From: Phage PEA2-3
Length of the DNA stretch: 52,770 bases
Sequence record: MW508890.1
Direction: 5' to 3' (one strand)
Every line of letters starts with the position of its first letter. Within the stretch, counting starts at the first letter, position 1. A program made the translations under genes and the position numbers. A model generated the notes under the pieces. That model ran no database searches. It saw nothing but the letters and a program-made list of their open reading frames with translations, and was not told the origin of the DNA. Shown piece by piece: positions 20,432 through 38,340 of this stretch.

Positions 20432-20533
20432 CCCATATCTCCGGTTTATTGTATACCCAGAGTGGATTATAGCACGACTCAAGCGTAAAAGAAACACTAC
20501 CAGCAACTGCACAAGCTTGCTGGTAGCAATTAG

Positions 20534-21037
20534 TTACGGTCGTACAGGCCAGTCGATATGCGGCGCATCTGACATAACAAGCAGCAACAAATCGGCACGG
20601 AATTTATGGAGAGCGATAATACGTTCCTCATCTTCTTCAGTGTCGAGTTGTCCTTCAACCCAAGCCTGTTCTTCCTGCAGGCGTTCTTCTGCAATCACCT
20701 TCTGCAGTTCAGAGTGCTTAACAAACTTGCCATTAACGTACGACCATTCGTAATAGCAATCCGCAAACTTAGCAACAGGGACAGACTCAACAATATGCAA
20801 ATCGCAATTAACAGGAAACAGTAGCGTAGGATCGTTAGCATACGCGGCAACAGCATTGTACTTGTCCACAACAATGTAATGAACCAGCTCTTTATTCTTA
20901 GCCAGCTCTTTAGCCAGCTTGCGCCAGTCATTACCATTGTTATCCTTGATGAATACAACGCCTTGCTTAATCAGCGGAAGTGTCTCCGCCGTCCTTTGTG
21001 GGTTGTATTCTGTAAAGTTGAAAAATGACAGTTGCAT
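20534..21037 (-). CDS. Tail fibre assembly protein-like (paralogue 2)
   Basis: 167 aa; paralogous to 21041..21583; ends in HIDWPVRP; downstream of the fibre gene. Confidence 0.5.
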   Translation of the reverse strand: MQLSFFNFTEYNPQRTAETLPLIKQGVVFIKDNNGNDWRKLAKELAKNKELVHYIVVDKYNAVAAYANDPTLLFPVNCDLHIVESVPVAKFADCYYEWSYVNGKFVKHSELQKVIAEERLQEEQAWVEGQLDTEEDEERIIALHKFRADLLLLVMSDAPHIDWPVRP

Positions 21038-21040
21038 GGT

Positions 21041-21583
21041 TTACTCCGGCATAGGTGGAACAACCATAGCGGAACCAAGGTTAATGTCAAGACGATTGAC
21101 AGCAATCCTGTAATCACGCCATTTAGCAAATAGCTCTTTTTCTTCATCGGTAGCATTGCCACTATCAACTGTGTCACGTAAAACACTGACCTTGGTCGAA
21201 GCGATGGACAGAGCTTGTTCTTTACGCTCACGAGCAATCTCCTTCATCATTGGTGCGTTAAGCGTAAACTCTTTACCGTCGAACAGCCATTCGCCAACAG
21301 TCTCGAAGATGTTGAAAGGCGGGTCATACGTTACAACCATATCGCAACCCACAGGATGGAACATAGTCGGGTCGGTATGTGCCGCAATTACAACTCCGTT
21401 CTTATCTACCTGCAAGAACGTTGCGCCTTCGTATTTGATAGCGAACTCTTTTGCGAGATTATACCAGTCGCGACCTTCCTCATCCTTGAGGAAGATTGCA
21501 CCAGCATTTACAATGTTCTCGTTCTCTTCTGTTACCTCAGGATGGTACATGGTAAAATTACGGAACACTTTATGCTTAGTCAT
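21041..21583 (-). CDS. Tail fibre assembly protein-like (paralogue 1)
   Basis: 180 aa; shares FLKDEEGRDWYNLAKEFA and AAHTDPTMFHPVGCDMV blocks with 20534..21037. Confidence 0.5.
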   Translation of the reverse strand: MTKHKVFRNFTMYHPEVTEENENIVNAGAIFLKDEEGRDWYNLAKEFAIKYEGATFLQVDKNGVVIAAHTDPTMFHPVGCDMVVTYDPPFNIFETVGEWLFDGKEFTLNAPMMKEIARERKEQALSIASTKVSVLRDTVDSGNATDEEKELFAKWRDYRIAVNRLDINLGSAMVVPPMPE

Positions 21584-21591
21584 AGTAACCT

Positions 21592-22932
21592 TTACGATAC
21601 GTTGCTTACGTTAATCCAAGTGCCGTTGATATAATACTGTAACGGCGCTGACCAGTATGTACCACCGCGCAGCTCTTTCTTATTGCCGAAGCGCCAGCCA
21701 GTCATTACATGCCCAGGGTAGAACGTTGACTCGGATACACCAGCAGCAATACGAGCGCCGAGTCGAATACCCCGAACGTTACCGGCTGAAGTATCGATAG
21801 GCTGCGGGTTGTTAGGTGAATATACTCTAACACCATTCTCGCATAAAATAAAGCTATTTGTGGTAGTTACTCGGCTGTTAAGACCATCCACCTGCAAAGC
21901 TACTGTACGGCGGTCGGCAATACCACCAGGGCGACATACCGCCATGTTAATCTGTGTAGCACCGCCAGCCACAAGGATGTGCTGGATGTGCGACATGGGT
22001 ACAGATCCCCAGCGAGCAGCAGTGACAACATTACTGTTAGCCGCGACAGAAACTGAAGTCAGCAACTCCTGAACAGCAGTACCACCTGCGATGTTACCAG
22101 AATACTCAACAGTACCTACGCCGGCGGAGTTAGCAGCACGTAGCAAGTCGGAAGTAGTACGTGCAATATGCAGCCAGCCAACAGTACCTAAGTTACCGCG
22201 GATTGAGTCAGAACCATCCATAGGGATGAAGTCCTGGTTAATACCCAGCTCAGCTGCCGTAGGTTTATTATCAGGCCCGTAAGAGTATGACCATCCGCCC
22301 CAGGTATTATTAACCTTCTCGCGCATGGCTATTACGCGCTTACCCTTGGTGCGTCCCCACTGTGAAGCGTTTTTCTCATCCCAGTTGATATGCAGAATCT
22401 CAGTCTCAACGCCGTTAGTAGGTCCGCCAGTACCTGTCGCTGGAAGCTGGTAGATACCGTCGTTTACAATGCTGTTAGCATTAGCAACTACCTCAGCGTT
22501 GCCACCTAAACCAAATGCACCGACCTGGATTACGTTACCAGAGGCTTTACCAACCTGTCGTGCTGCCGCAGTTGCTGCAGTCAGGTCAAGTACAGGGCGC
22601 CACTGTGTAGGGTTAGCAGACGGTGGCATATTAATGTTCTGCACCAGACAACGGTACAGCATATTGTCGGCGTTAACTTTAACCAGTGCACCAACCGGGT
22701 AGGTCTCAGTTTCTACCCATATATCAACACCCTGCTGAAGGATGTAGTGGATACCTTTGTCAGTACGGTTACCGATAAAGTTAAACCACTCCATCGGAGG
22801 AATACCTTCCGAGTAGCCAAGGGTTGCACCCCAGCCTCGAGCAAGGTCACCGAACGGCAGCAGTTCACCAGTACCCGCGGAGCTGGCGAAGATGTCGTTA
22901 TCGGGTCTTGTTTGTACATCAGCCATATACAT
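21592..22932 (-). CDS. Tail fibre protein
   Basis: 446 aa, Gly/Asn/Thr/Ser-rich, downstream of the baseplate genes and upstream of the assembly-protein paralogues. Confidence 0.55.
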   Translation of the reverse strand: MYMADVQTRPDNDIFASSAGTGELLPFGDLARGWGATLGYSEGIPPMEWFNFIGNRTDKGIHYILQQGVDIWVETETYPVGALVKVNADNMLYRCLVQNINMPPSANPTQWRPVLDLTAATAAARQVGKASGNVIQVGAFGLGGNAEVVANANSIVNDGIYQLPATGTGGPTNGVETEILHINWDEKNASQWGRTKGKRVIAMREKVNNTWGGWSYSYGPDNKPTAAELGINQDFIPMDGSDSIRGNLGTVGWLHIARTTSDLLRAANSAGVGTVEYSGNIAGGTAVQELLTSVSVAANSNVVTAARWGSVPMSHIQHILVAGGATQINMAVCRPGGIADRRTVALQVDGLNSRVTTTNSFILCENGVRVYSPNNPQPIDTSAGNVRGIRLGARIAAGVSESTFYPGHVMTGWRFGNKKELRGGTYWSAPLQYYINGTWINVSNVS

Positions 22933-34759: not shown

Positions 34760-37717
34760 TTACGGGCCTAAATCATAAATATCTGCTTTAGCCCCTTTGT
34801 TTTTGTACAGCAGGTATAAGCCCAACCCTCGCAATATTTCGCCAGAGTAAAAACCATAGTACATGGCGTTGCTTTCAGGTCCTGTACCAGTTTCAAGTCG
34901 TAACGCTGGCGACCAACCACCATCCATTACGTGTCCAGGAATACCAGTTATGTCATAGTGGTCTTCCAGCTCATTGACAAGCATGTCCATCAGCTTATCC
35001 AGTCCTGATACTGTTGACCCACAAAGGGCAGACATAGCTGCACCAGCAAGCCATAGTCCGCACATGTGACCTGTGAAGTCTGAAGGGACTGGCAGAGCAA
35101 CACCTTCTTGCGGGAAGTTAGAAGGTGACACACCTCCTGACCTTTCCATGAAGTCAAGCAACCATTTTGACCAGTTATCCACATAAGCAATAAGCTTACT
35201 AGGAACTGGCTTGCCACGGTTTACTAGCTCATACCATCCACGTGCTGCGGAGAAATAAGCACGAGGCTGGTAACCTGACCATGCACTACCATTACCCCAG
35301 TGGTACATAGTAAACGTATCAGGTACACCGTATTTAAAGTTATCCCAACGGTTCCAGATAAAAGCAGACGCACCAGGACCTAGTTGACCAAACTTCTTAA
35401 AGTACCATTGCTGAGAATCGTATAAAAAGTTAACCATGTTGTTCAGCCTGATTGTACCTGCTGCAGTATCGTCATGCGTAAAAACAAACGGATACTGATA
35501 GCCTGGGTAAGGTATACCATGCCAACCATCGAACTGCTTAGAATCAGGGTTATAAATGTTGGAGAACGGAATAACACCTGGCGTGTAAGCAAGGTTATCA
35601 TTCTCATAGTCCAGCACAGTACAGTCGCCTAGCTTAGCTGTGTACGGGTTATCAGCCGAGAAAGTAAGACGATACTTAATCGTATAGCCGATTGGCCAGT
35701 TATAGCGAGGCGGAACATCATTCACACAGTACCAGCTAATACTTGTCGACGTATTAACACCGTCAGGCAGTACAAACGCGAACTGCTTAATCTCACCGAA
35801 TTGTGGGCTGGTAGGTGGTGTACCTGTGTTTTCCTGGTATGACGCCAGCCTGAACTCCCAGGTGCGAATCTGCTGAGTTACCCATCCTGGCGCGGCAGGT
35901 AAATCACGTACCCAACTCCAGCCTTGCGCATCAGTTACTTTTATGCACAACGGACCTGTAGAAGTATACGTCAGCGAGTTTAAAGGTGCCTGGGAAGATT
36001 CCAGTAGCCAAAAGCCTATAATGGCACCTGACGAACTATCCGGTATTGTCATACGGACAGTGTTGCCACGTCTGTTGTCAAGTATGTCAGTACGGTAAGA
36101 CACTGCAATAGTGGCATTGCCATAATCAGTGGATGAACGAATATCAGCTAAGATATACTCAGAACCATCTGGCTTAGTACCTGCGACAAAATCGCTTAAC
36201 GGAATGTCGTAGTTAGCAGGTGAAGCACCAAGAGCAGGTAGCTGTGTGACAAAACGATAGATGTTTTGCTCAACGTCAACCTTTTCACGGTTCATGTACA
36301 TTTCCACCTTGACACTAATATTCTGACCAGCATCATCTTTGCCACCAACCTCTGTACGTATCTTAGCTGTTGGCTTACACTTAAACCATACAGCCTGTTG
36401 CTCCAGAGATGATTGAGCTTTTTGGTTCTGGCGTAGAACTATATAACCATTTTCATCACGTGAATATATAGCTTGTGCCAGTTCAGGATAAGACCAATCA
36501 TAAGAGATACCATCAGTAAACGGAGATGACGCGTGAGAGTCTTGACGGAAGAACTGGTCTTGTTTATCAATATCAATATACTCCTCCAGCGTAAACAGGA
36601 CAGCTTGCCAAGCGTTGTAATACTTTTGCTCGTTAGTAATTCGCCACAGCATATAGCAGCAGTCACAGAACCACAACTCAGCATCAGCAGCATTACCGCG
36701 TTGAAGCTCGCCGTACAATGGAACGTTTACCGGTCTGTTGTGCCATACTTCATTTCGCTTAAGCAAATAACCACCGTGTTCAACAGGAAGCTTAACGGCA
36801 TAGTTAAGCAGATACACACCGTTAACAGTGTGGTCACGGAGTTGAATCTCACCTCTGCGAGAGTCAGGCAGTCCAGTCTCAAGAATCTCGCCTCCCCATA
36901 GCTCATCGTTTTTGCCAGGCAGAACACCAATCTTGTTATTGGTCCATGCAACAATATACTCGATGAGATGTACAGGAGGTTCAGCCGCTGACCAGTCCAC
37001 AGTGTAGCTTGGTTCACCCAGATACCTCGGCCAGTCAATCCAGGCTAACTGATTCCACGGGTCAGCTGGCATGGTAGTGATGCGATAATTGTTGTAAATA
37101 TCGTCCCAGTCAACTTTATTTTTAATAACACGGACACCACCATTAATAGCAGGCCAAGCCATGTGTCCCCTGTGGGCCCAAGTAGCAACATCCAGGTACT
37201 CGCCCCAGAAAGGAGAACCATGAGGGATTTGTGCTTTGCCGTTAACAAATTTAACTGGCACATTTTTATAGCCGCCTTGTGTTGGTGAATCAGGGTTGAT
37301 TGGGAAGCTGGCCAACACAGGCTCTTTGCCATTACAAAGCCAGTTAGCGATCCAGCGACGAGGAGTATCAGGTATTGGGTCCCCCTCGTAATAGTACTTG
37401 ACGTAAGCATTGAAGTATTCAATTGCTTTGTCAAGGTACCGCTGTTCCTTAGTAGCAAGGTACGCATGAATTTCGCCGAGTATTAGCAGCGACTGACTTT
37501 CAGACGGAGCATCACCGTTAGGTTGATACTCCATCATGGTGTGTGCAATAAAATGGCGGTTGTTCGACACTACTCCTTCTGGGTTGAAGATATAATGCTG
37601 ACGCGTAGCGTCGTCAGTTCTGCCAGTATTGCGCTCAAGAAAATGGTGGTGACCTTCGATAAGGCTTTCGACATTAGCTCGATGGTCTGATCCGTCTTTA
37701 AGCAACATCGTGTGCAT
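34760..37717 (-). CDS. Large virion-associated protein, function unknown (possible tailspike or polysaccharide-degrading enzyme)
   Basis: 985 aa, Trp/Tyr/Gly/Asn-rich, inside the structural block; no catalytic motif recognised. Confidence 0.3.
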   Translation of the reverse strand: MHTMLLKDGSDHRANVESLIEGHHHFLERNTGRTDDATRQHYIFNPEGVVSNNRHFIAHTMMEYQPNGDAPSESQSLLILGEIHAYLATKEQRYLDKAIEYFNAYVKYYYEGDPIPDTPRRWIANWLCNGKEPVLASFPINPDSPTQGGYKNVPVKFVNGKAQIPHGSPFWGEYLDVATWAHRGHMAWPAINGGVRVIKNKVDWDDIYNNYRITTMPADPWNQLAWIDWPRYLGEPSYTVDWSAAEPPVHLIEYIVAWTNNKIGVLPGKNDELWGGEILETGLPDSRRGEIQLRDHTVNGVYLLNYAVKLPVEHGGYLLKRNEVWHNRPVNVPLYGELQRGNAADAELWFCDCCYMLWRITNEQKYYNAWQAVLFTLEEYIDIDKQDQFFRQDSHASSPFTDGISYDWSYPELAQAIYSRDENGYIVLRQNQKAQSSLEQQAVWFKCKPTAKIRTEVGGKDDAGQNISVKVEMYMNREKVDVEQNIYRFVTQLPALGASPANYDIPLSDFVAGTKPDGSEYILADIRSSTDYGNATIAVSYRTDILDNRRGNTVRMTIPDSSSGAIIGFWLLESSQAPLNSLTYTSTGPLCIKVTDAQGWSWVRDLPAAPGWVTQQIRTWEFRLASYQENTGTPPTSPQFGEIKQFAFVLPDGVNTSTSISWYCVNDVPPRYNWPIGYTIKYRLTFSADNPYTAKLGDCTVLDYENDNLAYTPGVIPFSNIYNPDSKQFDGWHGIPYPGYQYPFVFTHDDTAAGTIRLNNMVNFLYDSQQWYFKKFGQLGPGASAFIWNRWDNFKYGVPDTFTMYHWGNGSAWSGYQPRAYFSAARGWYELVNRGKPVPSKLIAYVDNWSKWLLDFMERSGGVSPSNFPQEGVALPVPSDFTGHMCGLWLAGAAMSALCGSTVSGLDKLMDMLVNELEDHYDITGIPGHVMDGGWSPALRLETGTGPESNAMYYGFYSGEILRGLGLYLLYKNKGAKADIYDLGP

Positions 37718-38340
37718 TATTTAATCCATCCACCGTTAAAGAAACCCATCCAAGTTGCGCCTGAGTCAAAGGTCAGCAACGTAACAACATCTGTGTAACC
37801 CACAAGGAATGACAGAACGGGCTTCCTGTTGTTGGCCCATTTTATTCTGGGATCCCAAGCAGTCACTTTGTTAGAACCAGTGCCTTGCTTAATAGCAATA
37901 GTAATCTGACGCGCAACAGTAGACGGGTCAGATACACCACCGATATTAATTACGGTGTTTGGCTGGTTAAGAGTAAGGCTGACAATTGTTTTAGATGCAG
38001 CTGGTATAGTCACTGTAGCTGCACTTGCAACGTTGCCATACTCATAGATTGCCGACGTCGAAGCTACTGTGGCCTGTTCAGCTGCCGTTTCTGCAGCTTC
38101 TTTGGCTGCAATAGCCGCGTCACGAGCAGCACGCGCCTGGATAGCAGCTTCGTTAGCGTTTTCAAAGTTTGGTATAGCTTCGTTGATTGCAGCGTTAATG
38201 CCTTCGAGTGTGCGTATGACACCGCCTTCCGGGTTAGGGATGTTTGGGTTGTCTGACATACCGAAGTCATGAATGAGCTGGACAGCAGTTGTTAGCTTAT
38301 CCAGCTGCGCTTGCAGTTCCGGGTCTACTCCAGTTGCCAT
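37717..38340 (-). CDS. Hypothetical structural protein
   Basis: 207 aa; Ala-rich helical segment then Thr/Val-rich region; stop overlaps the start of the 985-aa gene. Confidence 0.35.
   Translation of the reverse strand: MATGVDPELQAQLDKLTTAVQLIHDFGMSDNPNIPNPEGGVIRTLEGINAAINEAIPNFENANEAAIQARAARDAAIAAKEAAETAAEQATVASTSAIYEYGNVASAATVTIPAASKTIVSLTLNQPNTVINIGGVSDPSTVARQITIAIKQGTGSNKVTAWDPRIKWANNRKPVLSFLVGYTDVVTLLTFDSGATWMGFFNGGWIK

Follow-up and report, generated by a model that had tools for sequence, protein, structure and literature searches.

The 52,770-nt window analysed here, the whole stretch from Phage PEA2-3 (MW508890.1), is a near-complete Rosemountvirus genome with the gene order of BP63. 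Its minus-strand tail fibre locus would be an ordinary Rosemountvirus fibre module, in which one Mu-gpS-like fibre gene is followed by two intact and probably co-transcribed tail fibre assembly (TFA) genes of the Mu gpU type, T1 and T2. We put roughly even confidence in the reading that T1 is the chaperone matched to the fibre tip, and that T2 is an auxiliary, tip-independent co-chaperone of the same fibre. Gene integrity, family, fold, selection, phylogeny and swap boundaries are the observed basis of this proposal, and from them we infer the division of labour and the target of T2. The features of the locus are as follows:

21592–22932, minus strand: tail fibre gene, 446 aa from the ATG at 22932; matches phrog_30316 ('tail fiber protein') end to end; orthologue of BP63 gp44
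21592–21816, minus strand: tip-coding segment of the fibre gene, the exchangeable receptor-binding end (C-terminal ~70 aa), marked by a drop in nucleotide identity
21041–21583, minus strand: T1, tail fibre assembly protein 1, Mu gpU type, 180 aa
~21260–21583, minus strand: N-terminal alpha/beta domain of T1
21041–21259, minus strand: C-terminal helical hairpin of T1
20534–21037, minus strand: T2, tail fibre assembly protein 2, 167 aa, with C-terminal APHIDWPxRP
21044–21047, minus strand: Shine–Dalgarno motif GGAG of T2, read from the sequence, within the last T1 codons and 6 nt upstream of the T2 ATG
20486–20527, minus strand: terminator-like hairpin (20496–20527) plus U-rich tract (20486–20495), directly after the T2 stop

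The window is 98% identical to Rosemountviruses in nucleotide sequence, and the 2.7 kb around T1 and T2 share 96–99% nucleotide identity with about 40 sequenced Rosemountvirus genomes, including BP63, swi3, LSE7621, KE24 and SD350; these relatives are myoviruses of ~52–53 kb with Salmonella and E. coli as hosts. In the RefSeq record of BP63, gp44 carries the label 'tail fiber protein', the next two products (gp45, gp46) are each called 'tail fiber assembly protein', and holin, endolysin and spanins come after them; 'tail fiber assembly protein (x2)' appears in many Rosemountvirus records. In the sister genus Loughboroughvirus, 'two chaperones', both homologues of Mu GpU, were described behind the Mu-like fibre gene of phage S144 (Gambino et al. 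2020, PMC7432712), where an analogy with T4 gp38/gp57A was drawn and the roles were left for further work. Given the RefSeq annotation of the trio and this earlier paper, the arrangement of one fibre and two TFAs was already known. What is new here is incremental, namely the placement of T1 and T2 in different TFA subfamilies, the shortened hairpin of T2 and the exchange of T1 alone together with the tip. Our literature search found no paper in which T1 or T2 had been tested individually. Two host labels among the matching records look doubtful: PP583539.1, 'Listeria phage 220426122051', is 97.9% identical to the Rosemountvirus module, and the TFA of MG065645.1, 'Campylobacter phage A145' (146 kb), resembles those of ~146-kb Escherichia phages.

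An initial annotation, made from the sequence alone, had placed two adjacent minus-strand TFA genes at 20534–21583, downstream of a single fibre gene. Both ORFs are found there with the peptide motifs that it quoted, and the one fibre gene lies directly upstream, at 21592 to 22926 or 22932. The start of the fibre gene is ambiguous, as the longest ORF begins at 22932 (MYMADV...) and the RefSeq relatives use the ATG at 22926 (MADV..., 444 aa); a study of the Rosemountvirus SD286 (2026; PMC12946066) cloned the longer form with primers encoding MYMADV, matching the ORF in the window. Three nucleotides separate the T1 stop from the T2 start, a spacing that suggests translational coupling. The hairpin behind T2 has an RNA folding energy of −18.9 kcal/mol (z = −2.5). 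It was missed by a simple terminator pattern scan, whose loop rule probably does not fit it, and BP63 has no terminator annotated at the matching position, so the terminator is a prediction; its location directly after T2 suggests that the tail/fibre transcription unit ends with T2. The holin gene comes next. Between the hairpin and the holin gene, the minus-strand segment 20432–20495 (...CTTGAGTCGTGCTATAATCC...) carries a perfect TATAAT, not reported by the consensus scan, which may serve the lysis cassette as a promoter of its own.

No trace of an invertible segment was seen, in agreement with the initial annotation. Between 19000 and 24000, imperfect inverted repeats of 15–27 nt occurred at chance level only and no DNA-level repeat linked the T1 and T2 genes. 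The ORFs of the locus included no second tip-coding sequence, T1 and T2 share one strand, and the complete annotation of the sister genome BP63 contains no invertase. We therefore rejected an invertible host-range cassette of the Mu G segment or P1 C segment kind. The suggestion that the two chaperones serve alternative fibre tips finds no counterpart in the sequence either, as T2 is followed by the terminator-like hairpin and the holin gene, and not by another tip.

Sequence and fold comparisons place both proteins in the TFA family, as had been proposed. BLASTP aligned T1 and T2 over 121 aa at 38% identity (E = 1e-24), within the N-terminal two thirds only; by domain, identity was 36–37% in the N-domain and 20% in the C-domain. 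Each protein matched phrog_136 ('tail fiber assembly protein') end to end, T1 at 2e-43 and T2 at 5e-31. Against PF02413 (Caudo_TAP), T1 scored 50.7 bits and T2 17.7 bits, under the gathering score of 22.1, and an orthologue of T2 (P0002) has a precomputed PF02413 match. The Pfam and PHROG scans of T1 and T2 returned TFA-type families only, with no homology to gp38 or gp57A. A profile built from homologues of T1 and T2 matched Mu Tfa (gpU; 5yvq_B) over its full length (E = 1.3e-20). AF2 models of T1 and T2 (pLDDT 95.3 and 94.3, respectively) both consist of an N-terminal alpha/beta domain and a C-terminal helical hairpin, and a Foldseek search of the PDB returned 5yvq_B as the sole significant match to either model (N-domain TM 0.83 for T1 and 0.79 for T2). 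The hairpin helices span residues 110–140 and 146–163 in T1, and 108–133 and 137–151 in T2, so that the T2 hairpin is ~13 residues shorter around the turn; in the 50-sequence alignment, this deletion is confined to T2 orthologues. The fibre gene is followed immediately, on one and the same strand, by T1 and then T2. On sequence and modelled structure, we assign T1 and T2 alike as full-length Mu gpU-type TFAs. Published work on this family assigns binding of the fibre tip to the variable N-domain and oligomerisation to the conserved helical C-domain (PMC9608196).

Across eight Rosemountviruses, the T1 and T2 ORFs were all intact and of identical lengths, with mean pairwise dN/dS values of 0.12 for T1, 0.09 for T2 and 0.05 for the fibre. 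Low dN/dS and intactness in all eight genomes argue that neither T1 nor T2 is a pseudogene. One copy being a pseudogene had been named in the initial annotation as an outcome that would refute it; both ORFs are intact and under purifying selection.

Two database records of the locus look odd. Salmonella phage LPSEYT (MH181876.1) carries a perfect 127-bp tandem duplication over the end of T1 and the start of T2 (L001:2153-2406), which creates an extra 65-aa ORF, listed in GenBank as a third 'tail fiber assembly protein', and leaves T1 and T2 intact; the duplication is either a very recent event or an assembly artefact. Salmonella phage SPHG1 (MW413353.1, 47 kb) has the trio of fibre, T1 and T2 at 89% nucleotide identity between different flanking genes (L005:1953-4422). 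Short in-frame insertions in its fibre and in its T1 are pieces of T1 and T2 themselves (QRTAETLS, AVNRLDVN, LLVMSDAPH), and its T2 has a matching deletion. This record looks chimeric or misassembled, and the idea that it captures the trio moving as a cassette into an unrelated phage was set aside.

The trees separate the two TFAs. In neighbour-joining analyses with 200 bootstraps, the T1 clade (support 0.97) grouped with the single TFAs of sister phages (0.73), and the T2 clade (1.0) joined the TFAs encoded by Phapecoctavirus, Av-05 and jumbo Salmonella phages (0.90); T1 and T2 formed one group with a support of just 0.005. A recent tandem duplication is ruled out by these trees, and no DNA repeat joins the two genes. 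Of the 'clear paralogues with diverged C-termini' of the initial annotation, homology and the greater divergence of the C-domain hold, and recent tandem duplication as their origin falls. By the tree topology, T2 is assigned to a different TFA subfamily, closest to the TFAs of large myoviruses. Since T1 and T2 are not each other's closest relatives, T2 may be of foreign origin, acquired in an old exchange of cassettes. When 1.84 billion cluster representatives were scanned in full with HMMER, T2 matched just 46 clusters at E ≤ 1e-3, only two of which fell below 1e-30 (T2 itself and the Loughboroughvirus T2), and scans of IMG/VR and metagenomes recovered known isolates only, with no new T2 lineage. 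A word-indexed protein search gave 2 matches with T2 alone and 12 with the family profile. Two long T2 matches of the HMMER scan, P0030 and P0034, are repeat proteins and were discarded as spurious.

The boundaries of sequence exchange are clearest in the comparison with L007, a metagenomic third lineage with two TFAs. With a 90-nt sliding nucleotide comparison, identity was ~80% up to ~21800, dropped to 32–52% across the tip, the T1 N-domain and the first helix to ~21170, and beyond that point returned to ~70% through T2 and 80% further on. The proteins follow the same pattern, with 38% identity in the tip, 32% in the T1 N-domain and 51% in the T1 C-domain, against 75% in the T2 N-domain and 70% over T2 as a whole. 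The low-identity block likewise leaves out the conserved C-terminal helix of T1. As judged from these alignments, the exchanged cassette consists of the tip and most of T1, with T2 left in place between the window and L007. The N-terminal alpha/beta domain of T1, encoded directly after the tip, would thereby be exchanged with it by recombination, and the C-terminal hairpin would represent the conserved Caudo_TAP part.

Comparison with the Loughboroughvirus ZCSE2 limits how far this can be generalised. Almost all proteins of the window are 72–96% identical to their ZCSE2 counterparts, and the outliers are T1 (43%), T2 (44–45%), the fibre tip (40%) and an Ig-rich protein of 710 aa (49%). At the nucleotide level T2 is intermediate (50–60%). 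As T2 has here diverged like T1 and nearly as far as the tip, its independence of the tip rests on one lineage pair, the window and L007. The Ig-rich protein (31913–34045, minus strand), annotated as 'major tail protein', has ~8 Big_2 Ig-like repeats; it differs in length from its ZCSE2 counterpart (710 vs 624 aa), is the sole other structural protein as diverged as the tip and the TFAs, and may be a second surface-exposed determinant of specificity or decoration. Between the head–tail connector and sheath genes (34760–38340, minus strand) lie a 207-aa 'tail fiber protein' (phrog_27998) and a 985-aa 'tail protein' (phrog_2871). Neither has a Pfam match, and both are conserved in one-TFA and two-TFA phages alike.

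The comparison with related phages that the initial annotation had proposed uncovered variants of the tip and of T1, and lineages with one and with two TFAs. Among relatives, the fibre combines a conserved shaft (61–87% identity) with variable last ~70 codons (tip identity 36–46%), and nucleotide identity to L007 and ZCSE2 falls from ~80% to 32–42% in the tip segment. Two TFAs are found in the Loughboroughviruses ZCSE2 and S144 and in L007; a sister clade with the same module (fHy-Eco03, L009, L010 and L011) has one. Fibre shafts divide into a two-TFA and a one-TFA clade, and the tips are mosaic across this divide, the tip of the two-TFA Loughboroughvirus being 69–70% identical to those of the one-TFA fHy-Eco03, L009 and L010. 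It follows that the number of TFAs tracks the phage backbone and not the tip type. A 'TFA x2' annotation in Hafnia phage yong1 proved to be a mis-annotated fibre plus one true TFA.

Tips also cross wider distances. The last 61 aa of the PEA2-3 fibre (21595–21777) are 77% identical to the tip of bas60_0032, a 327-aa short tail fibre of the 150-kb Justusliebigvirus PaulScherrer (L020:4990-5973), which is followed by a single TFA, bas60_0033. The remainder of the two fibres is unrelated, which points to an exchange of tips between myoviruses that otherwise differ greatly. Between phages with tips 73–77% identical, the TFA N-domains are just 37% identical; these domains evolve fast in general, which softens arguments from co-variation. 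When the SD286 fibre was expressed alone, it formed inclusion bodies, and the refolded protein gave no block of adsorption (PMC12946066); both outcomes are consistent with a need for chaperones.

Because T2 is not swapped with the tip and sister phages with the same tip types have a single TFA, an auxiliary co-chaperone is the role that these comparisons suggest for T2. It would have been gained by, or retained solely in, the ancestor shared by Rosemountvirus and Loughboroughvirus, with purifying selection since then, and its task would be to recognise what is conserved in the tip fold or to help T1, rather than to act as chaperone for an alternative tip. A more specific version, which we regard as speculative, makes T2 a 'universal', backbone-resident and tip-independent co-chaperone that works through a heteromeric helical bundle with the C-terminal helix of T1, giving a two-tier system.

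The one-TFA relatives imply that T2 is dispensable in principle, and this is also compatible with simple redundancy, in which T1 or T2 alone can fold the fibre and two copies raise yield or robustness across hosts or temperatures. The shared fold and architecture and the 36–37% identity of the N-domains fit such interchangeability, as does the fact that related phages manage with one TFA. At the same time, both genes are under strong purifying selection in three diverged lineages, their C-domains come from different subfamilies, T2 has a conserved deletion in the hairpin, and T1 alone was swapped with the tip, which suggests that the specificities are not equivalent. We consider redundancy unlikely on this evidence, yet more probable than the other rivals of an auxiliary role.

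It is less probable still that T2 serves another trimeric virion protein, for which the 207-aa protein (37717–38340), the 985-aa protein (34760–37717) and the Ig-rich 710-aa protein (31913–34045) are the candidates. T2 does not follow the fibre tip between the window and L007, the genome encodes further proteins annotated as fibres, and the Ig-rich protein, which shares 49% identity with its ZCSE2 counterpart, is the one further structural protein that is hypervariable. However, fHy-Eco03 is without T2 yet has homologues of all three candidates (55%, 76% and 66% identity), and the 207-aa and 985-aa proteins are 77–82% conserved relative to ZCSE2, compared with 44% for T2. TFA genes normally adjoin the gene of their client, and Ig-domain decoration proteins are not known to be clients of TFAs.

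We think it slightly more doubtful again that T2, or both TFAs, stay on the mature tip, where they would modulate host range as a cap or adhesin, for example between Salmonella and E. coli. Members of the genus do infect both hosts, Mu Tfa remains on the virion (PMC9608196, PMC7432712), and LC-MS/MS flagged the single TFA of fHy-Eco03 as particle-associated. The fHy-Eco03 proteome, however, places 48 of 81 proteins in the particle-associated set, DNA polymerase, holin and lysozyme among them, and with so many proteins flagged it is unspecific, so we discount the virion association of its TFA; in S144, of the sister genus, neither chaperone was found in virions by ESI-MS/MS (PMC7432712).

That T2 is a pseudogene or a decaying remnant of an earlier host-range cassette, as its foreign subfamily, its score below the Pfam threshold and the loss of ~13 hairpin residues might suggest, is very improbable, given that T2 is intact in every genome examined (dN/dS 0.09, on a par with the fibre module), has a good ribosome-binding site and a confident AF2 model (pLDDT 94), and shares its deletion, which is thus old and tolerated, between lineages just 45% identical. 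The cassette remnant of the initial annotation, taken as decay, is not supported by two genes intact in eight Rosemountviruses at dN/dS 0.12 and 0.09; the old cassette exchange considered above may have occurred.

These distinctions bear on the re-engineering of phage host range, where tail fibres and their chaperones must move together. Rosemountvirus and Loughboroughvirus phages are in use in biocontrol cocktails against Salmonella and E. coli. If T2 is tip-independent, fibre swaps into the backbones of these two genera would need only the tip and the N-domain of T1, and T2 would provide a first example of same-family TFAs that divide their roles. Were the two-tier reading true, a compact cassette of fibre tip and T1 N-domain could be exchanged freely with assembly still competent, promoting modular evolution of host range.

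The closest known systems include that of phage Mu (fibre gpS; PDB 5YVQ, PF02413), whose Tfa (gpU) shows the same two-domain plan and is encoded by the gene that immediately follows that of the fibre. In Mu, each fibre variant comes with a single TFA, and the second pair, S'/U', is oppositely oriented inside the Gin-invertible G segment. Unlike Mu, PEA2-3 has two TFAs in the same orientation behind a single fibre, with no meaningful inverted repeats and no invertase in its annotated sister BP63. ORF31–33 of S144 and gp44–gp46 of BP63 are orthologous trios that differ in nothing of kind; relative to the Loughboroughvirus trio, that of PEA2-3 has a different kind of tip (40% identity), and its T1 and T2 have diverged as well (43–44%). 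Homologous fibres or tips with the same TFA family and one TFA only are seen in fHy-Eco03 (gp43/gp44) and PaulScherrer (bas60_0032/bas60_0033), which shows that these tip types do not generally require T2.

T4 provides a precedent for two chaperones acting on one fibre, as gp38 and gp57A both act in trans on the tip of the gp37 fibre and are absent from the virion (PMC9608196, PMC7432712). Those two proteins are, however, unrelated to each other and to Caudo_TAP, whereas T1 and T2 belong to one family with one fold. In Pam3, the fibre and chaperone gp24/gp25 assemble at 3:3, with the N-domain of the chaperone binding the fibre and its C-terminal helices trimerising (PMC9608196). Pam3 has a single chaperone, distant in sequence and with no heteromeric TFA described, and its helical trimer offers a model for how the hairpins of T1 and T2 could oligomerise.
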